A stretch of DNA of 64,000 nt from a virus (IMGVR_UViG_3300033519_000155:22925-86924); one strand, 5' to 3'; shown: positions 51,347-62,871, counted from the stretch's first letter. Numbers and translations are program-made. The notes: generated from the sequence alone by a model not told the origin.

Positions 51347-54300
51347 TTAGAGGTAAAATCTATCAGGATTATGATAATAATTAGGAGAATTTGAGAAGGG
51401 ATACATTTCTAACATCTTATCAAGATTGAATAACTCATTTTCTTTAGGATATTTATTTTGTAAAGGTTGAATTTTTTCAACTAATCCATAACTCGGAGGA
51501 GTATGAATACATGGTTTTTGAGAAGAACAATGGAAACAAACACCTGCTACCGCATCAGCTAAATCCTTACTTCCAGTAGGGGGATGGTCAACTTTATTTC
51601 TGCGTTCATCAAATTCTAAACATTTTAGTTCTTTAAAAAGAATTTCACTATAATAAAATTCAATTCTATCTTCTTGTGCTGCATTTTTAAAACAATCATA
51701 GGCATCAGTATTTCTATCTACAGAAAGAAGTCCAGTGTTTATTCCTTTTCTTTGCAAAATTTGTCGGGAGTCAGCAGATTGAAATTGGTCAAAAGACACA
51801 TATTGAAAATAAAAACCTTTTAATTGTAACTCATAAATAATACTTCTTATATCTGCAATTTCTATTTCACTTCTTCTTTTTGCTTTTACCTGAAGCATTA
51901 AATCTATAGTAATATAAGGGGCATCTTCAATACTATAAATACCATCGGAGTTTTTCTTTTTTACTTTCACATATTCTTTTACATGTCCTACGGCAAATCC
52001 ACAGCAATCTTTCTTTAATGATAAATCTATATGGCAGAAATGTGGATTTTTGTTCTGACATTTGAACCCTTCAGTAAAGAATAAGGGGTCTCCAGACATA
52101 AAAGTCGTTACAGAGATTGGGTGTTTTAAGTGTTCTCCACGTTTAGCAGCTTCTAACATCTTAGCAAAATTAGTAATGTAAGGTCTAATAGACTGAGTAG
52201 AATACCCTGCTATATCCCTAATAGAACCATGTAGGTCATTTTCAAAATCTAATTTATGCTCAATTGGAACGGAAACAACTTTAACTCCTTTGGAAACAAG
52301 GTGTTGTATTCTATCAGAAAAATTTTCTTCTTCCTTATATAGTATTTCAGGGGGAATATCTGAATTATTTCCTAATGATAAATAGAATTTTTCTCCTAAA
52401 TAGAAGCTTTTAGGTTTTGTTGACCACTGAGAATAGCGTCTATAAAATATTCGGGGGTCAGTTCTTGCTCGTCTTTCTAATTCATGTGTAAAATCATCAT
52501 TATATTTAGCGGAAGAAAGAGTAAGTAAGATACCGGGAAGTTTTCCCCTTTCCATAAAACGAGACTCCATACGTCTGATAAAAGCGTCATGCAATTCTTT
52601 AGCTTGGTTATAAGAACCTCCACGAGCTTTAGCGGAACTAATAAGAACTTCCATAAAATTAGCTTCATCAATAATTCCTCCAAAAACATTAAGGGAAATA
52701 GGGTCAGTGGTTGGAAAAATTTCAATATTTTTTGGGAAACGTATTTCAATTTTTGTTCTTTTTTGCATTGGAAATTTTGTTCTAAAATAAGGACTTTTAC
52801 TAAATAAGTTTGCCATTCCATCAAATACCGTTTTTATAGCTTTGTCCATTGTAACAGATACATTAGCAAAAACAATTTTACTCCCATCAGCAAGACCGTA
52901 TGCTTTTTGTGGATTTTTTAAACAAGAACATTCATAAACCATTCTTGCCATAGCAATTTCACTGAATGTTGAATTATGAGTTATAATATTATTAGCAATA
53001 AAATTACTTGTTTCTGGAACATTTAAATCGTAAGTTTCTTCTTGCCCTAAGTATTCTGTGGATTTTACTCTATCCCAAAAAATATCAGAATTTACTAAGT
53101 TTTTATATTTTTGAGGACAATTAGGAAATAAGTTTACTACATATTTTAATTTTTTTCTGGAAATATATTGACCATTAGGGCATCTAAAGGTATTCCAAAG
53201 TTTTTTACTTATTCCCCCAACTTCTTTTCTTAATTCTACTAATTCTCTATATCCTATAGGAGTAATATCTACATTAGGGTTATTTTTTCCCTTTTGTTTA
53301 AAAGGTTTTTTTATTAATCTACACCATTTTCTGTAATCCCTCCCGGATAATTGTAATCTATAATAAGTATTGTCCGGGTAAGGAGAAACTTTTTTTTCAT
53401 AAAGTCTTGCGTGTATTCCTAAACGTAGAAATAAAGTAACTACCCCATAAGCTAAATCTTTAGATGCTGACATATATTCACAGGTGTTATTTTTATTATA
53501 ACTACCATCACAACGAAATAACCTATCTAAAAAGATAATAAGTGAATTTATTGGTAGAGTAAAAATTTCAGGGGGTATTACTTTTTCTTTAGATAATTTA
53601 CCAGAAAGACCATATTGTTCTAATATAGTTCTAGCACGTATGTTGCAACTAATAGATGTAACAGAGTATTTACCTTCTTTATTATACCGAACATATTCAG
53701 AAAAAGTTGTATGAAATAAAGATTTTGTTATATCTCTAAATTCTTGTAATGTAAATGGGTCGTTATCTGTAAAATTCATGTGCTTTCTACAACAACCATC
53801 TGCTATCATATAAGCAAGGAATTTTACTTCGTTTATATCTATATCCTTAGTGACAGGGATTTTTAATTTTCTTGGCGTAGCAATAAACATTCCTTCTTTT
53901 AAATCCCCTGCATATACGTAACCTTTATCTGTTAATATAGGGTGATTATATGTGCAATCTATAAACTTTCCACTTGTTAATTTTACTCGGCAAATGTCTT
54001 TTACCCCGTTATTTAAAATATGTTTAATTTCCACAGGTTTTATTTTTAGTTCAGGTGTTACTCCAAATGCTTGAAATTGAATTTTCTTACTTATTGACAT
54101 ATCATACAACTCCTTTATTGTTTTAAATGATATATCAATATTACCATACTCAATACCCCTTGTCAAGACAAACATAGATGTAGAACCACAAAAGCACTTT
54201 CCATATCCAATTCCTCCTGTTAAAACTGCTTCATGATAGTTATTTTGAGGATTAAAAAGCTCACATAAATCTTCTTCAATAATTGTATAAACTTGCCCTT

Positions 54301-54523
54301 TTAAATTTAAATAATAAGGGTCGTTTATAAAGGTGTGCATATCTACAGGGTATTCCGAGTAGGTTGTTTGTGCTAAATGTTTGAGAGCAATTAATTGAGA
54401 GTCCTGATTATCAAAACTTGTAAGATATTTTAAGAGTAAATCATCAAGTTCTGTATTCTCAGATTGGAATTCTTGTTTTGTTTTATTAACTGGAATTTCT
54501 AAAACTGAATTATTCTCCTCCAC
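51347..54523 (-). CDS. terL: Terminase large subunit, intein-containing
   Basis: Walker A GGIGYGK|S, Walker B IIDEAN, nuclease CHIDLS, FDQFQS, KDLADA. Confidence 0.96.
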   Translation of the reverse strand: MEENNSVLEIPVNKTKQEFQSENTELDDLLLKYLTSFDNQDSQLIALKHLAQTTYSEYPVDMHTFINDPYYLNLKGQVYTIIEEDLCELFNPQNNYHEAVLTGGIGYGKCFCGSTSMFVLTRGIEYGNIDISFKTIKELYDMSISKKIQFQAFGVTPELKIKPVEIKHILNNGVKDICRVKLTSGKFIDCTYNHPILTDKGYVYAGDLKEGMFIATPRKLKIPVTKDIDINEVKFLAYMIADGCCRKHMNFTDNDPFTLQEFRDITKSLFHTTFSEYVRYNKEGKYSVTSISCNIRARTILEQYGLSGKLSKEKVIPPEIFTLPINSLIIFLDRLFRCDGSYNKNNTCEYMSASKDLAYGVVTLFLRLGIHARLYEKKVSPYPDNTYYRLQLSGRDYRKWCRLIKKPFKQKGKNNPNVDITPIGYRELVELRKEVGGISKKLWNTFRCPNGQYISRKKLKYVVNLFPNCPQKYKNLVNSDIFWDRVKSTEYLGQEETYDLNVPETSNFIANNIITHNSTFSEIAMARMVYECSCLKNPQKAYGLADGSKIVFANVSVTMDKAIKTVFDGMANLFSKSPYFRTKFPMQKRTKIEIRFPKNIEIFPTTDPISLNVFGGIIDEANFMEVLISSAKARGGSYNQAKELHDAFIRRMESRFMERGKLPGILLTLSSAKYNDDFTHELERRARTDPRIFYRRYSQWSTKPKSFYLGEKFYLSLGNNSDIPPEILYKEEENFSDRIQHLVSKGVKVVSVPIEHKLDFENDLHGSIRDIAGYSTQSIRPYITNFAKMLEAAKRGEHLKHPISVTTFMSGDPLFFTEGFKCQNKNPHFCHIDLSLKKDCCGFAVGHVKEYVKVKKKNSDGIYSIEDAPYITIDLMLQVKAKRRSEIEIADIRSIIYELQLKGFYFQYVSFDQFQSADSRQILQRKGINTGLLSVDRNTDAYDCFKNAAQEDRIEFYYSEILFKELKCLEFDERRNKVDHPPTGSKDLADAVAGVCFHCSSQKPCIHTPPSYGLVEKIQPLQNKYPKENELFNLDKMLEMYPFSNSPNYYHNPDRFYL
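52973..54196 (-). mobile_element. 408-aa intein with LAGLIDADG endonuclease in TerL Walker A
   Basis: GK|CFCGST...TYDLNVPETSNFIANNIITHN|STF; LAYMIADG, LFRCDGS. Confidence 0.95.
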
Positions 54524-55196: not shown

Positions 55197-55225
55197 ATAA
55201 TAAATACCTCAAAGTAAGGATAACA

Positions 55226-55258
55226 AAAAGAGAGTCTTTTGTCAAGACTCTCTCTTTT
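55226..55258. terminator. Terminator hairpin containing the -35 of a putative terS promoter
   Basis: GAGAGTCTT/AAGACTCTC stem; minus strand TTGACA(55240-55245)-17-TATCCT. Confidence 0.65.
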
Positions 55259-56336: not shown

Positions 56337-56576
56337 TTAAGATAAAACTAAAAATCTTATATCTCTTACTAACATTTTGTCCTTCATAATACATTCTTCA
56401 AAAGAAACTTCGTAATTAGCAAGTTCTAATAGCTTTATTATTATGTCGGTAGTGAAATTATTCTGTTGTTTTAAAGAATAAAACCTTTGTTTAGAAATAC
56501 CAAGAGCTTTTTTAATCATTTTTGGTGTTATATTATTCTCTTTATAATATTTAAACAAAGGTTTTAGTGTAATCAT
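56337..56576 (-). CDS. Cro/C1-type HTH protein
   Basis: ITPKMIKKALGISKQRFYSLK; TAATG-coupled start at 56576. Confidence 0.65.
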   Translation of the reverse strand: MITLKPLFKYYKENNITPKMIKKALGISKQRFYSLKQQNNFTTDIIIKLLELANYEVSFEECIMKDKMLVRDIRFLVLS

Positions 56577-57220
56577 TACTCTTTCCTCGATGCTCCACCT
56601 AAATAATCTGCACATACGTATTCTATACAAACTGATACTGGAAGCATGTCATTCTGGTTTTCTTCTTTTACTCTTCCTACTGCTTGAAGAACAACATTAT
56701 ATTGTTCTGCTGTAAAATCTATTTTAAACTTCCGTTCTTTGATTTCTTCCTCTTCATCAGGCATATTTTCTAATTCGGATTTCACTTCTTCCATAGTAAA
56801 ATCTAAAATTTCAAGATAACTATTTAATTCTTCTTCCGAAAAAGGCATAGTGTCCTGTAAATCCCCTAAGTTATAAGACTTTGCAAGTTCCTGTAATAAG
56901 TCTGATAACTTCTCAGTGTCAGAGTCAAATCTTGTTTCATTAAGTTCTATTGCCATTCTTTTTGCTTCAACATCTTCAACTTTTCCAAGATTAATACATA
57001 AAACTTCTTTAAGTTCAAGGTCATTAAAGACATCTAAACGATGATTTCCATTAACTACCTCATACCCATCACCTAATTCCCGAACTAAAATAGTTTCAAG
57101 CTGTCCATTTCTCTTCATATTATTACGAAGTTTTTCCCGGAGAAAATCACTGTTCTCCTTATAGTTCCATGAACATTTAAACAATTTTTCTACAGGTAAA
57201 GTTTCAATTTTAATACCCAT
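56576..57220 (-). CDS. ParB/Srx-like domain protein, paralog 1
   Basis: WNYKE...ILVRE...YEVVNGNHR...IELNETR. Confidence 0.88.
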   Translation of the reverse strand: MGIKIETLPVEKLFKCSWNYKENSDFLREKLRNNMKRNGQLETILVRELGDGYEVVNGNHRLDVFNDLELKEVLCINLGKVEDVEAKRMAIELNETRFDSDTEKLSDLLQELAKSYNLGDLQDTMPFSEEELNSYLEILDFTMEEVKSELENMPDEEEEIKERKFKIDFTAEQYNVVLQAVGRVKEENQNDMLPVSVCIEYVCADYLGGASRKE

Positions 57221-57224
57221 TTTA

Positions 57225-57917
57225 TCAAATCCTTTCTAATAATTCTTTCATATCTTCAGTTTCTTGCCCTCTTCTTTTTAAAACTGACATATTAAACGCA
57301 TCTTCTACAAAAGGTCGAGGGTCATAAGCAAACCAACTCTCACAATCTATTCCATTGAGCTTTAGTGCTGCGTATTTTCTAACACAACTTCTACATTTTC
57401 CACATTCTTTTTCTAAAACAGAATAACAACTCCGAGAAAGGGAAAGATTATGGGGATTTTCCCCTGTTTCAAGATAAAGTTTAATAAGTTCTCGTTTAGT
57501 AAAATCCTTATAAGGGATAGATGCAAAAAATTCTCTATTAACTAAATGTCTAGGTGCTTTACTTTTGTTTTCAAACAAATATTCTAAAAGATTATTAGTA
57601 AGAGAAATAAATTTTAAGGTTTTATCCGCAGTTGTATCTCCAGCAGTTGCCCCTAAAGTAACTTCATCACCATAATAAGCACCTATCATAATAAAGAATA
57701 AATTTCTCATAGGAATAATTTCATTATCAAGTTTTTCATCAGCAAGTCTTAATCTTCTATCAATAAGTAAAGGCATTTTCATAGGTAAACTTGAAATACA
57801 GTTTAATTCTTTATTATTTTCGGGAAGTCCTATATGACAGAAGAGAGCTATATCAAATTGTTGTAATCTACTGATAATAAAACTATCAAGTCCTCCGCTA
57901 AACAGTAATACTTTCAT
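57225..57917 (-). CDS. queC: 7-cyano-7-deazaguanine synthase
   Basis: LLFSGGLDS, IPMRN, TK, SRSCY...CGKCRSC. Confidence 0.9.
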   Translation of the reverse strand: MKVLLFSGGLDSFIISRLQQFDIALFCHIGLPENNKELNCISSLPMKMPLLIDRRLRLADEKLDNEIIPMRNLFFIMIGAYYGDEVTLGATAGDTTADKTLKFISLTNNLLEYLFENKSKAPRHLVNREFFASIPYKDFTKRELIKLYLETGENPHNLSLSRSCYSVLEKECGKCRSCVRKYAALKLNGIDCESWFAYDPRPFVEDAFNMSVLKRRGQETEDMKELLERI

Positions 57918-58723
57918 AATATACTCCTTAAAAAAGCTAAAACATCATTAGAAAAGTCATAATACATAGGACTCTCTAATGTTATTTGATGATTAATATA
58001 TTTAGTAAGTTCTAATTCAAAAGGACAATCTTCCGCTATAAAATCTTCATACATATTCATCATAGTATTCATTATTGAATACATTGTTAGTCCTTCTAAT
58101 CTTTCAGGTCTATCTTTATATGAGTAAGAATAATCATATCCGAAGTAATTTGTCATAATTCTAAAAGTATCAAACTCTTTTAGGCAATTTATGACAGAAT
58201 AGACCTGACCATCTATATCTTTATCAGAATTTAATTCATTGAAACATAAGTCAGTCTGGTCAACACTACTTACCATCATACTATGATAAATTGTCCGATA
58301 TTCTCCACCAGTCCAGAGAATTGAACCGGGAAATTTCTCTAATACCATCAGGTAATAAGCATAAAGAAGAGGAATGTTTTTACTATGATGTGTTGGGGAA
58401 GAATACTCTTCACATAGTTTACTTTTTAATCTTATATCTGCTTTTATTTTTTTAAAAGATTTTCCTTTCTCCTTTATGAACAAAGTTTTATAAGGAATTT
58501 CGTGAAAATCTAATATCTGACAGGTAAGCAAAGAGTCTTTTCCTCCGGTGAATAAAACTATATTCTCTTTATTTTTAAAGTTTTTAAGTTTCATTTCTAT
58601 AGGAGGGGGAAGAGTAAAAAAAGACAAATTACATTTTGCTACTGATGCAAAAGTCTGTAAAGATACCTGATGAAGTTTTTCAAACTCAGTCTGCCCTTCA
58701 AGATTTCCTCCAGTGCTTAACAC
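57914..58723 (-). CDS. Second PP-loop (ANH superfamily) protein, not canonical QueC
   Basis: IVLFTGGKDS; lacks QueC Zn cysteines; GTG start at 58723 preferred over ATG 58756. Confidence 0.7.
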   Translation of the reverse strand: MLSTGGNLEGQTEFEKLHQVSLQTFASVAKCNLSFFTLPPPIEMKLKNFKNKENIVLFTGGKDSLLTCQILDFHEIPYKTLFIKEKGKSFKKIKADIRLKSKLCEEYSSPTHHSKNIPLLYAYYLMVLEKFPGSILWTGGEYRTIYHSMMVSSVDQTDLCFNELNSDKDIDGQVYSVINCLKEFDTFRIMTNYFGYDYSYSYKDRPERLEGLTMYSIMNTMMNMYEDFIAEDCPFELELTKYINHQITLESPMYYDFSNDVLAFLRSIL

Positions 58724-59471
58724 CTTTACCCTCTGAAGTCTTTTCTTTATCTGCAAGTTTCTTCTCCCCCTTTAGTTTATTTATTAATTCTTTACAAGCT
58801 TCAACTATACATTGCACTTCAGTTAAGTATTCACCAAATTTTCTTGTAGAATTCATATCATTAGTTAACTGAGTAACCCAATAATAATCATCTGCTCTAA
58901 AATTCATTGTGAATTCTATTAAATCTTCTTCTCCTTCCTCTTCTGCTAAAGCTTCTTCCTCTTCTATAACCTTTTTTGCTGCATTTATGTCATAATCGAG
59001 ATAACTAATAAAAGCTTCAAGCTCATGTTCGTCATAAGGCATTGTGTTAAGTAGGTCTTCCCGACCAAATTCATTACTAATATCTTGCAGAAGTTCTGAA
59101 AGTTTCATTGTATCAGAGGCAAACCGAGTTTCATTTAATTCTATAGCAATTCTTTTTGCAAGATTATCAGAAATTTCTCCTAAATTATAGCAATAAGCTT
59201 CAGGAAATTCTAATTCTAAAAGAGCAGTTAGTCTGTGATTTCCATTAACTACTTCGTAGGAATTTTCAAAATCATTAGTAGAAGAGATTTCTCTTACTAC
59301 TAAATTTTCTATTTGCCCATTCTTAACTAAATTATTCTTTAGTTTTTCGTTGAGCACATCGTCATTTTCTTTATAATTCCACCCTGCGTGAACTAAGTTC
59401 ACTAATGGAATACTCATAAATTTACCGGGCAATTGCTTTAGTCTGTCCACGTTATCCCTCTCCTTTTCCAA
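58698..59471 (-). CDS. ParB/Srx-like domain protein, paralog 2
   Basis: WNYKEND...YEVVNGNHR...IELNETRF; acidic tail. Confidence 0.88.
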   Translation of the reverse strand: MEKERDNVDRLKQLPGKFMSIPLVNLVHAGWNYKENDDVLNEKLKNNLVKNGQIENLVVREISSTNDFENSYEVVNGNHRLTALLELEFPEAYCYNLGEISDNLAKRIAIELNETRFASDTMKLSELLQDISNEFGREDLLNTMPYDEHELEAFISYLDYDINAAKKVIEEEEALAEEEGEEDLIEFTMNFRADDYYWVTQLTNDMNSTRKFGEYLTEVQCIVEACKELINKLKGEKKLADKEKTSEGKGVKHWRKS

Positions 59472-60205
59472 AGTTTGGTATATTTAATACCAAGATTTCT
59501 AAAATAATTAGCTTCTTCTAATAGCTTTTGTTCGGAATTTGTTGTTCTCATATAAACATAAGAGAAATCATTTCCGTATTTTAACTTACTGAGTCCATGA
59601 TTAAATCTTCTAGGTGCAACCCATGTGGAACTATCCACCGAGTAAAAAGGAAATTTCTCTAAAAAAGTTTCTGCTGTAATACCTAAACCATGTAATTTTA
59701 TTTTATGGTCAGTCGCAGCAAAACAATAAGAAAGAAATTTGCAATATAAGTCAGGGTGAACTCCCATTCCTGCAAGTCCTCCTAAAAAGATGTAATCTGA
59801 ACCTTCAGAAACAAATGTTTTTAGTAGATGTTTATTATGTGTAGTAACATAATCAGAAAAATGGTAAACAGGTAAGATTTTAGTTTTCGGACACTTATTC
59901 CTGAGATATTCAAAGTTCTTTAGTGTATCTTCTACATTAACTACGTCTAAATTTACAGCAAATGGAAATTCATATGTATTAAGGTAACTTGCATAATCTT
60001 TAATATTGATAGTTCTTCCGGTTTTTCTTGCAGAATATCCACCAGAGTCAACTAAAATCATTTCAAATCCTTCATAGGGAAATTTTTCAAAAAATCTAAC
60101 AACATTATCCTTAGTGACATAGAAGAAACTAAGTAATATATTTGGATATTTCCATAGATTAAATCTTTTAACCTCTGTTTCCGCACTTGATAAAAAGACC
60201 CTCAT
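59438..60205 (-). CDS. dpdA: DpdA-like DNA guanine transglycosylase (TGT fold)
   Basis: VDSGGYS, NLDV, PVYH, GGLAG, LHGLG, SVDSSTW; in que gene cluster. Confidence 0.85.
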   Translation of the reverse strand: MRVFLSSAETEVKRFNLWKYPNILLSFFYVTKDNVVRFFEKFPYEGFEMILVDSGGYSARKTGRTINIKDYASYLNTYEFPFAVNLDVVNVEDTLKNFEYLRNKCPKTKILPVYHFSDYVTTHNKHLLKTFVSEGSDYIFLGGLAGMGVHPDLYCKFLSYCFAATDHKIKLHGLGITAETFLEKFPFYSVDSSTWVAPRRFNHGLSKLKYGNDFSYVYMRTTNSEQKLLEEANYFRNLGIKYTKLWKRRGITWTD

Positions 60206-60465
60206 TATAAGTCCTCCCAATTTTTGTTTCTATCGTCTATATAACAGTCTGCTCTCATTTTTTCCATAACTAAAGCGTGATGCTTTATTCCTCTTCGCAA
60301 AAGTTCTGCTCTTGTCTGAGGAAATATCTGATAAGACCGAGCAGTATAAATTACTATAAAGTTATTAGGGTCTTCAAATAATGTATTAAGTTTTGCAATT
60401 TCCTCAGATGTATTTAGTGTTCCGTCATAATCTACTGCTATAATTTTCATACCAATAATTTTCAT
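60205..60465 (-). CDS. Minimal HAD-family phosphatase
   Basis: AVDYDGT, YTAR, EK, YIDD. Confidence 0.82.
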   Translation of the reverse strand: MKIIGMKIIAVDYDGTLNTSEEIAKLNTLFEDPNNFIVIYTARSYQIFPQTRAELLRRGIKHHALVMEKMRADCYIDDRNKNWEDL

Positions 60466-61277
60466 ACTTTCTTTAAAATTAATATATACTGATGGTGAAT
60501 ATTTTCTACATAAGCAAAGGGATAACCGTAAGGATATAGTTTTTTACTATTCTGTGCTAAAACTTTAATACCTTGTAATTTAAAAATATTAGATAAAGAA
60601 GAAACTAAATCTGAGTGAAAAGGTATAAAATTACTTTGATGTCTAAAATCACTTACAACTATTGCTATGTATTTATTTAATTTAAGAACTCTATTACACA
60701 TAAAAAATATTTTAACTAACTCATCTAGAAATTCTTTATATGAAGGTAAATTACCAATATCTAAAACATTATCACTATATTTTGTAGCTAAATTATTAGC
60801 TAATCTCTCTTGTTTTACCTTATGGTCTGCCTTTTTTGATAAAATATTCCAATATGGAGGACTGGTAACAATAAAATCAAAATGATTATCAGGAAAGGTT
60901 TGTAAAATTTCACGACAATCTCCTAATAAAATATCTTGGGTTTGTAAACTTTCTTCATTAACTTCAATTTTTAATCTTTCTAATCCTAAATTTCTCCATT
61001 TTTCTGATAATTCAATACCTATACCTTTTCTTTCTAACAGGGCACACGCTTTTAAAGTAGATGCTACTCCAACAAAAGGGTCTAAAACAAGTTGGTCAGG
61101 TTTAGTGAAAAAATTTATTAATCTACTAATATCTTGAAATGAAAAGGGAGCAGGGTGTTGTTTTTCTATCTGTGCATGAGGGTGAGAACTCCCTAAACCT
61201 TTTTGATACCATATGCTTTTTGTTTCCTGTATCCATTCTTTTCCCTCTAAACAATTTAATTTATTTCTTTTGTCCAT
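60462..61277 (-). CDS. Amino (N4-C/N6-A) DNA methyltransferase
   Basis: HPAPF, VLDPFVGVAST (motif I), IVTSPPY (motif IV). Confidence 0.92.
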   Translation of the reverse strand: MDKRNKLNCLEGKEWIQETKSIWYQKGLGSSHPHAQIEKQHPAPFSFQDISRLINFFTKPDQLVLDPFVGVASTLKACALLERKGIGIELSEKWRNLGLERLKIEVNEESLQTQDILLGDCREILQTFPDNHFDFIVTSPPYWNILSKKADHKVKQERLANNLATKYSDNVLDIGNLPSYKEFLDELVKIFFMCNRVLKLNKYIAIVVSDFRHQSNFIPFHSDLVSSLSNIFKLQGIKVLAQNSKKLYPYGYPFAYVENIHHQYILILKKV

Positions 61278-61837
61278 TAAACGCTTCTAAGAGCAATCAA
61301 ACTAAGAAATTCCTGTCGAGTTTGATAACTATTTCTCAGGACTCCTTTCATACTTGATGTAATCATTACACTATTTTGTTTTTGAACTCCTCTTGCTTTC
61401 ATACATAGATGCTGACATTCTAATACCACACCTACACCAAGAGGATTAAGTTTTTGTTCTAAATAATCTGATACCTGTTGAGTAATTCTTTCCTGATTTT
61501 GCAATCTCCGGGAGTAAAGGTCTAATACTCTTGCAAGTTTAGATATACCAATAATTTCCTCACTGGGAATATATCCAATATGAGCTTTTCCGAAGAAAGG
61601 TAACATATGATGTTCGCAGGAAGAGTATAGTTCAATATCTCTAAGGATTATTAACTGGTCGTAACCTTCAGAGGAGAATGTGCTAATTTTTATTTCATTA
61701 TCATATCCACTAAATAATTCATCATAAGATTTTGCAACTCTTAGAGGAGTATCTTTTAATCCTTCCCTTCGGGGGTATTCTAAAGCATTAAGAATTCTAT
61801 GAATATTATTTTTTATTATACCAGTTATATTTTTCAT
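61277..61837 (-). CDS. folE: GTP cyclohydrolase I
   Basis: TPLRVAK, CEHHMLPF, GISKLAR, QERIT, HLCMKARG. Confidence 0.97.
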   Translation of the reverse strand: MKNITGIIKNNIHRILNALEYPRREGLKDTPLRVAKSYDELFSGYDNEIKISTFSSEGYDQLIILRDIELYSSCEHHMLPFFGKAHIGYIPSEEIIGISKLARVLDLYSRRLQNQERITQQVSDYLEQKLNPLGVGVVLECQHLCMKARGVQKQNSVMITSSMKGVLRNSYQTRQEFLSLIALRSV

Positions 61838-62631
61838 CAGGGTAAATCCTTCAAATTTTTATATTCTATTTTCTTTTTTGCAATCCATTGACTTTCATTG
61901 TCATTAAACAAATAAATTTGTAATCTCGGAGAGAAGTTCAGTCCATTTTCTAAACACTTTTCTAAAACAAATAAAGATTTTTTGCGGAGAGAATGTCTTC
62001 TATTATGTAGAGGTTGTAAATATACTAATCCTTTAGGAATAGATAATCTATTAATAAGAGATAAGACTATAGATACATCTTCATCGTCTTTTACAACAAA
62101 TTTAAAAATCGGATGAAGAAGATTAGAATATACTAAACAATTTTTTATATTCTCTTCTACTTCAGGAGTAATGTTATCTAACTTAGGAGAAACATTTAAA
62201 TAAATTTCGGAACTAAATTCTCTTCCTCTAATATGATTTCGCATCATTCTACCTCTACAAAATTCTAAGAAATAATGTTTTTCAATATTAATAGTTCCAT
62301 TAGTTTCAATCTCTATAGAGCAATCTTCAAATACATTTTGCTGATATGAGGAGAACCCACTAAACATAGATACAAGTTCTTCCATCTGAAGTAGTGGTTC
62401 ACCACCAGTAATTAAAATTTTGCGAAGAGAAATAAGAAGGGGAATATCTATAAGAGAAAGTAATCTACTACGGGAAGAAGTATTCCATGTATAAGAACTA
62501 TCACACCATGCACAACGAAGGTTACAACCCTCCAACCGAACAAGGCAACAAATCTGACCTATCCGTTGTCCTTCCCCCTGTATCGTTATAAAGGGTTCTT
62601 CCGCAATCATCGGGAACTTAATTTTATTCAC
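61837..62631 (-). CDS. queE: 7-carboxy-7-deazaguanine synthase (radical SAM)
   Basis: TIQGEG...RLEGCNLRCAWCDS; ITGGEP; IETNGT; SPK; KFV. Confidence 0.95.
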   Translation of the reverse strand: MNKIKFPMIAEEPFITIQGEGQRIGQICCLVRLEGCNLRCAWCDSSYTWNTSSRSRLLSLIDIPLLISLRKILITGGEPLLQMEELVSMFSGFSSYQQNVFEDCSIEIETNGTINIEKHYFLEFCRGRMMRNHIRGREFSSEIYLNVSPKLDNITPEVEENIKNCLVYSNLLHPIFKFVVKDDEDVSIVLSLINRLSIPKGLVYLQPLHNRRHSLRKKSLFVLEKCLENGLNFSPRLQIYLFNDNESQWIAKKKIEYKNLKDLP

Positions 62632-62841: not shown

Positions 62842-62871
62842 ATTATATCACATTCTTTTATCTTTAGTCAA
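62842..62871 (-). promoter_or_regulatory. Promoter of the modification operon
   Basis: TTGACT-18-TATAAT with TGn. Confidence 0.7.

Follow-up and report, generated by a model that had tools for sequence, protein, structure and literature searches.

A gene of an uncultured phage, here termed X, encodes an orphan PP-loop protein that is a credible candidate to carry out a new tailoring reaction on 7-deazaguanine. It is located in a DNA stretch of 64,000 nucleotides (referred to as the window), and the gene content predicts that the source is a phage that replaces the guanine of its DNA with a 7-deazaguanine base. The 7-deazaguanine bases known from phage DNA number eight, and with every new tailoring enzyme came another base and another route past restriction; Escherichia coli itself makes 7-carboxy-7-deazaguanine (CDG) and preQ0. 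X represents a previously undescribed and very rare family of the known PP-loop superfamily. The gene is real and selected, its product has a PP-loop fold nearest to those of QueC and Cap9 with a rebuilt pocket, and the residence of the family in dpdA clusters is exclusive and conserved. In the reading that we favor, with a probability of about 45%, X is an active PP-loop ATP pyrophosphatase of an undescribed family that is accessory to 7-deazaguanine DNA modification; its ATP use, substrate, nucleophile, and product are those that we infer below.

The features discussed are compiled in Table 1. Gene X had been described in a preliminary description as spanning positions 57914 to 58723, and the start of this span corresponds to the GTG codon chosen by the gene caller, which results in a 269-amino-acid protein (P0002). 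The gene itself was borne out, as an open frame of 280 codons, but its start was not. The real start is placed, on sequence comparison, at the TTG codon at position 58756 rather than at the GTG codon, since (i) residues 1 to 38 of X align with the N termini of its homologues, and both the 11 codons 5' of the GTG and the entire first 55 residues match these N termini (consensus, MxIxxRxxR...FEK...S), and (ii) the sister phage L029 keeps the TTG codon and the GGGGGAG Shine-Dalgarno sequence, and the GTG codon is an Ala codon there. In addition, tblastn alignments with three paralog classes start at residue 1 of X. A start at the ATG codon at position 58594 (226 amino acids) was rejected, as the homologues and the sister phage favor the TTG codon. 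As a consequence of this start, the last 59 nucleotides of the ParB-like gene upstream also belong to X; at the other end, the stop codon of X shares an ATGA with the start codon of the queC-type gene downstream. X and its copy in L029 share 85.6% identity with a dN/dS of 0.137, a value close to those of FolE, the HAD gene, and ParB.

Table 1. Features of the window, of the record from which it is taken, and of related loci
Feature	Coordinates	Strand	Basis or remark
Gene X, orphan PP-loop protein, 280 amino acids, QueC-like fold	57914..58756	minus	TTG start at 58756, stop at 57914-57916
PP-loop motif TGGKDS of X, residues 70-75	58532..58549	minus	Translation; directly after strand beta1 (residues 65-68)
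HSKNIP segment of X, residues 124-129	58370..58387	minus	Translation; positional counterpart of QueC VPxRN
GGEY segment of X, residues 150-153	58298..58309	minus	After strand beta4
ParB-like gene 1, downstream of queC	56576..57220	minus	phrog_723, E 9e-25
Divergent QueC-type gene	57225..57917	minus	PF06508, E 4e-13
ParB-like gene 2	58698..59471	minus	phrog_723, E 1e-19
DpdA (DNA guanine transglycosylase)	59438..60220	minus	phrog_887, E 3e-35
Capless mini-HAD phosphatase-like protein, 86 amino acids	60205..60465	minus	phrog_1238, E 2e-12; weak HAD NCBIfam matches
N6/N4 DNA methyltransferase, inside operon	60462..61277	minus	PF01555, E 5e-24; absent from L029
FolE (GTP cyclohydrolase I)	61277..61837	minus	PF01227, E 1e-65
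QueE (radical-SAM CDG synthase)	61837..62631	minus	phrog_2076, E 2.5e-45; PF04055
Near-consensus extended -10 promoter, TTGACT-18-TATAAT	62842-62871	minus	Pattern match; upstream of queE
Terminator with 14-bp stem	55225-55257		Pattern match; after 316-amino-acid Lys-rich gene
Probable large terminase	51347-54523		LAGLIDADG intein
Probable large terminase, sister copy	L029:7582-10293		HNH_3 intein
queD (PTPS)	G000:C1:18920-19276		E 2e-33; locus L007, about 4 kb before window start
X1 to X4 array, first lineage	L003:10001-13536
X1 to X4 array, second lineage	L005:4091-7586
X1 to X4 array, third lineage	L002:1005-4348
folE split by LAGLIDADG intein (L003/L004)	L003:8091-9698
DXD glycosyltransferase-like gene (L003/L004)	L003:6729-7448		PF04488, E 1e-6; between queD and queE

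The preliminary description had pointed to an extra PP-loop enzyme beside queC, with a PP-loop and HSKNIP and GGEY segments, which lacked the QueC RN motif, zinc cysteines, and a glutaminase domain. All three segments were located by translation, the extra enzyme proved real by its invariant PP-loop and its modeled fold, and the absences hold as well. The alignment of X with 14 homologues (alignment A2), which span five paralog/ortholog groups, revealed the following. (i) Residues G71, G72, K73, S75, and T78 of the PP-loop are invariant, and the sequence [ST]GGK[ED]S is common to all 14 homologues. (ii) G150 of the GGEY segment is invariant and P129 of HSKNIP nearly so, whereas the R-N of the QueC motif that would follow P129 is lost from X. 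(iii) The invariant positions of the family are [ST]GGK[ED]S..T, E96, S112, Y134, G150, D169, S187, E194, D196, Y207, S212, P263, D267, and F268; the PP-loop and about 15 further residues are unchanged across very divergent paralogs. (iv) From the QueC substrate motifs YxQxHxxE, VPxRN, and YPDC, only E96 is found in X; IPLLY replaces VPxRN, and there is no YPDC. (v) The zinc site C(x)8CxxCxxC is not present in the family, nor does the alignment contain any conserved Cys column, which argues against a sulfur transfer of the LarE or thiolase type; neither the catalytic Cys nor the three-Cys [4Fe-4S] site that is the signature of LarE and the tRNA thiolases was found in X. (vi) X is a single domain of 280 amino acids, with no second domain and no glutaminase. 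The proteins of the family are acidic, with pI values from 4.6 to 6.5.

Searches of Pfam, PHROG, NCBIfam, and PADLOC gave no credible match for X or its homologues. The QueC model PF06508 did not match X even at an E value of 0.1, PF06508 and TIGR00364 returned nothing for X and its 14 homologues at E values up to 10, and a six-frame PF06508 search of the whole record retrieved only the neighboring gene. Two weak signals recurred in the homologues, namely, DUF7411 (E value, 0.096) and PRK14561 (E value, 0.024), neither of which matches the X of the window. An hhalign comparison of X with the QueC profile aligned only the 18-residue PP-loop, at a probability of 31%. Sequence searches of the PDB, using either the single sequence or a profile, retrieved Sex-lethal and the Pet protease, which were dismissed as chance matches.

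We then compared structures, using an AlphaFold2 model of X that is based on the 14-sequence alignment (pLDDT, 85.6; pTM, 0.87). All leading Foldseek matches in the PDB were PP-loop ATP pyrophosphatases, and the model contains the core of this superfamily, a five-strand parallel Rossmann-like alpha/beta fold (Z scores of 8 to 11.8 over 130 to 179 residues). As the model has a PP-loop fold, the assignment of X to the PP-loop proteins is, at the level of the model, far beyond chance. The highest VIA-align scores were obtained for QueC (2pg3; Z, 11.8; 179 residues; rmsd, 3.4), with 11.3 for the QueC structure 3bl5 and 10.7 for Cap9, the second-best fold match. The next shelf, at Z scores of 9.4 and below, comprised LarE, 3k32, YcfA, the GMP and NAD synthetases, and TilS, with 9.0 to 9.4 for folds of the LarE/tRNA thiolase type and 7 to 8 for GMP synthetase, NAD synthetase, and TilS. 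The margin in Z score over the other PP-loop families is modest, at about 2. QatC scored 8.9, with residues 1 to 262 aligned, including the N-terminal helices, and AsnB-type structures scored 4.8 to 5.4. The best viral structure models that match X are phage QueCs.

A QueC-like ancestor is the most probable origin of the family. X resembles QueC (PF06508 cluster 1/TIGR00364; 2pg3 and 3bl5) in its fold, for which QueC is the best match over 164 to 179 residues, in its N-terminal PP-loop after beta1, and in its neighborhood of folE, queD, queE, and dpdA, and the first half-reaction, an adenylation with release of PPi, is presumably the same. In contrast to QueC, X has an additional two-helix N-terminal extension of about 55 amino acids and is about 50 amino acids longer, it lacks the zinc and substrate motifs, and a separate QueC-type gene adjoins it.

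The X family is extremely rare. A phmmer search of 1.84 billion cluster representatives resulted in nine matches, of which P0009 and P0010 were discarded as compositionally biased repeat/coiled-coil proteins; the family numbers eight real cluster representatives. No relative was found by tblastn in 50,697 isolate phage records, none was confirmed in an IMG/VR scan and a pattern scan of JGI metagenomes, matches in 400 Bacteroidota genomes were at chance level only, and among the GTDB species representatives the family occurs on only two short MAG contigs. Longer or fused forms were also searched for, and none was found. The phage of the window was found identical in two other samples (L030 and L031).

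In five lineages, i.e., on every contig with enough flanking DNA, the family is found among folE, queD, queE, and the divergent queC, and dpdA is also beside it wherever the contig reaches far enough. Homologues apart from dpdA, the occurrence of which the preliminary description had named as evidence against its proposal, were not seen, and every informative relative is linked to a deazaguanine cluster. Two gene orders were observed. The window phage and its sister L029 have the order queE-folE-(MTase)-HAD-dpdA-parB-X-queC-parB; the genes for a small-terminase-like protein, a probable large terminase with an intein, and the portal come next. In L003/L004, L005/L006, and L002, the order is queD-queE-folE-(HU)-HAD-X1-X2-X3-X4, followed by small open reading frames and, where reached, queC-dpdA. 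These three metagenomic phage lineages thus carry four tandem, slightly overlapping paralogs of 281 to 305 amino acids, which share 30 to 38% identity; none of them has lost the PP-loop or any other invariant residue. Each of the X1 to X4 clades is supported at 99 to 100% and is orthologous across lineages, whereas the X of the window forms its own long branch. The X2 copy of L002 contains an in-frame TAA near its 5' end and may be N-terminally shortened.

The dN/dS values for X1 to X4 are about 0.08 to 0.31, with dS saturated, and X and all of its paralogs are, by this sequence measure, under purifying selection. This selection, the synteny kept in five lineages, and the invariance of the PP-loop and the further residues across such divergent paralogs make it hardly probable that X is passenger cargo or a catalytically dead scaffold with an incidental position in the operon, even if such a role would agree with the tiny size of the family and with the missing substrate-binding motifs of its known relatives.

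The gene next to X is itself unusual. It scores 37.6 bits, against a TIGR00364 cutoff of 150, though it is above the Pfam QueC threshold. Experiments have defined YxQxHxxE, VPxRN, YPDC, and C(x)8CxxCxxC as the canonical QueC signatures and Y35, R99, and Y131 as essential in E. coli QueC (PMC13329287). The QueC of the window keeps SGGLDS, IPMRN, K165, Y189, and the zinc cysteines and is devoid of Y35, Q37, H39, Y131, and C134. The same divergent type is present together with FolE, QueE, and DpdA in phage NCTB and Bacteroides phage BS162P1, and no second PP-loop gene was found near the divergent queC of either phage. Since these clusters lack such a gene, the divergent QueC seems, from gene content, to take the usual place of QueC, and X seems to be an add-on outside the core.

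This bears on the alternative that X serves the divergent QueC as a partner or subunit in ordinary preQ0/ADG synthesis, with no new base involved. X would then carry out or assist the conversion of CDG to ADG or of ADG to preQ0, a step that may be weak in a QueC without Tyr35 and Tyr131. The QueC-like fold of X, the co-expression implied by its ATGA coupling to queC, and the loss from the neighbor of residues essential in the E. coli enzyme (PMC13329287) all speak for such a helper. We nevertheless consider it unlikely, as the NCTB and BS162P1 clusters carry a divergent QueC without X, three small genes separate X4 from queC in L005, and four paralogs are hard to fit as helpers of a single enzyme.

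Cap9 and QatC, which belong to type IV CBASS and QatABCD, attach CDG to a protein N terminus; in both, the QueC fold is used with another amine in place of ammonia. X could accordingly be an enzyme of this kind that joins CDG to an amino group of a phage or host protein, for example, in counter-defense, and each of the four paralogs would have its own target. The structural matches to Cap9 and QatC, the acidic and non-DNA-like charge of X, and the fast divergence of the tandem paralogs are consistent with this idea. However, Cap9 retains the catalytic core and the zinc site of QueC, and X keeps neither; no conserved candidate partner protein adjoins X; and none of the PADLOC defense models matches it. 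X also differs from Cap9 and QatC in that it is encoded by a phage within a DNA modification operon and has neither a CD-NTase nor QatB nor a TGT-like Cap10 as a partner. A protein target is therefore judged very unlikely.

The record encodes queD in addition to folE and queE, and its route to CDG is therefore complete; queD is distant from the other pathway genes and adjoins a second DNA methyltransferase. No QueF-type gene was detected in the 87-kb record, about 54% complete according to CheckV, the only signal being a cross-match to the T-fold of FolE, and other tailoring genes may lie outside the record. A tblastn search with the DpdA of the window retrieved 189 phage DpdA records, including those of CAjan, Seurat, and phiSM. 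The DpdA proteins of the window and L029 share 98.8% amino acid identity (dS, 0.63; dN/dS, 0.016), which is far tighter than for any neighbor. ParB-like genes lie on both sides of X and queC; the two are paralogs with 45% identity. Bacterial DpdA requires the ParB-like ATPase DpdB. The four-paralog loci contain no ParB-like genes and have an HU-like gene in their place.

A mini-HAD protein (DxDGT ... DD) is present at every locus of the X family, and that of the window is 60 to 67% identical to the gene directly upstream of X1 in L002, L003, and L005. It is the best-conserved companion of X, since the same lineages share only about 30% in X, and it has almost no relatives in isolate phages (one weak match). 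The DXD glycosyltransferase-like gene of L003/L004 is missing from the window and from L005. The preliminary description had also noted a loose resemblance of X to MurL-like proteins. In the ESM Atlas, 12 of the 30 nearest feature neighbors of X were MurL-family clusters (structural TM scores of 0.54/0.50). The chemistry proposed for MurL is also the adenylation of a carboxylate, in a peptidoglycan context as opposed to the phage DNA modification context of X (PMC8788868). The NCBIfam search gave no match, and the relation, which has no sequence-level match, is a lead only at the level of the models.

These observations are relevant to a further alternative, according to which X activates another group, either a ring carbonyl of a purine or deazapurine or, as proposed for MurL, the carboxylate of a peptide or sugar, and the conserved mini-HAD phosphatase would handle a phosphorylated intermediate. 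GMP synthetase, TilS, and argininosuccinate synthetase act on carbonyl groups and are the precedents for ring carbonyls. Consistent with this alternative are the scores of GMP synthetase, NAD synthetase, and TilS, the MurL neighbors, the mini-HAD gene at every X locus, and the glycosyltransferase of the L003 cluster. The ranking of QueC and Cap9 above the other PP-loop folds argues against it, as does the fact that neither a phosphoribosyltransferase nor a nucleotide kinase is conserved in the clusters; sulfur transfer is unlikely given the lack of a conserved Cys, and the single tRNA of the window (Gln) gives no pointer to a TilS-like role. On balance, we regard the activation of another group as rather unlikely.

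The favored reading, that of an ATP pyrophosphatase accessory to 7-deazaguanine DNA modification, implies the following sequence of steps. FolE, QueD, and QueE would make CDG. X would bind ATP at its TGGKDS loop and adenylate a carboxyl group, for which the 7-carboxyl of CDG is the most plausible candidate, either of the free base or after insertion into DNA by DpdA. A nucleophile that differs from the ammonia of the QueC nitrile route would attack the resulting acyl-AMP, and the product would be an amide-type 7-deazaguanine derivative that may help the phage to evade restriction. The preliminary description had proposed that X activates CDG or preQ0, free or in DNA, to attach an amine or another group. 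This proposal is supported in part, as regards the PP-loop protein and its link to the deazaguanine/dpdA cluster, while the substrate, the attached amine, and a new nucleoside are predictions; the longer N terminus, the four-paralog arrays, and the non-canonical nature of the neighboring queC were not part of that description. Among the points that speak for the favored reading are the following. (i) QueC and Cap9, the nearest folds of X, both adenylate the carboxyl of CDG. (ii) CDG can be inserted by a DpdA, and its deoxynucleoside, dCDG, occurs in natural DNA (PMC10516641). (iii) The phage enzyme CmoY, an asparagine-synthetase-like AMP-forming ligase, joins glycine to 5-carboxymethylcytosine in DNA, and ParB-domain genes are frequent near the CmoX/CmoY system (PMC12783734). 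CmoY serves as an analogy for the logic of a carboxyl handle, its adenylation, and an amide, and not as a tested homology: it belongs to a different branch of the superfamily (asparagine-synthetase-type structures have Z scores of about 5), and base, handle chemistry, and size differ. X does not show the AsnB-type synthetase domain of the amide ligases AsnB, CmoY, and beta-lactam synthetase and has no N-terminal Ntn glutaminase domain, which is usual in that group.

Several points count against this reading. The sequence similarity to QueC is limited to the 18-residue PP-loop, the Z margin over other PP-loop folds is modest, and the residues that hold the deazaguanine (the R of VPxRN and the Y and D of YPDC) are not recognizably kept. 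An acidic pI, as calculated from the sequence, is not expected for a DNA-binding enzyme. Little CDG would remain if the neighboring QueC converts all of it to preQ0, and no amine-supplying enzyme is encoded near X. The purpose of four paralogs in the related phages is also unexplained by this reading. A more tentative extension, which we hold to be possible, is that the X-family ligases make amide-linked CDG derivatives, free or in DNA, and that X1 to X4 add different or successive units, in likeness to the building of side chains by MurC-F. If true, phage DNA would contain hypermodified guanines of a new class.

What makes X a strong lead is a rebuilt active site within a fold like that of QueC, its exclusivity to dpdA clusters, and the expansion to four paralogs in sister phages. 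For the making of a DNA base that has not yet been described, X is a good candidate, with a substrate and a product that we infer; the chemistry to which it points, on a carboxyl handle of deazaguanine, would parallel that of the 5-carboxymethylcytosine/CmoY system. Even without a new base, X extends the repurposing of the QueC scaffold, as in QatC, Cap9, and LarE, to a phage-encoded branch.

Finally, the promoter and terminator found by pattern matching would bound one long operon that extends from queE to the 316-amino-acid Lys-rich gene. Inteins were noted at two sites: the probable large terminases of the window and of L029 carry different inteins, and folE is interrupted by an intein in L003/L004.
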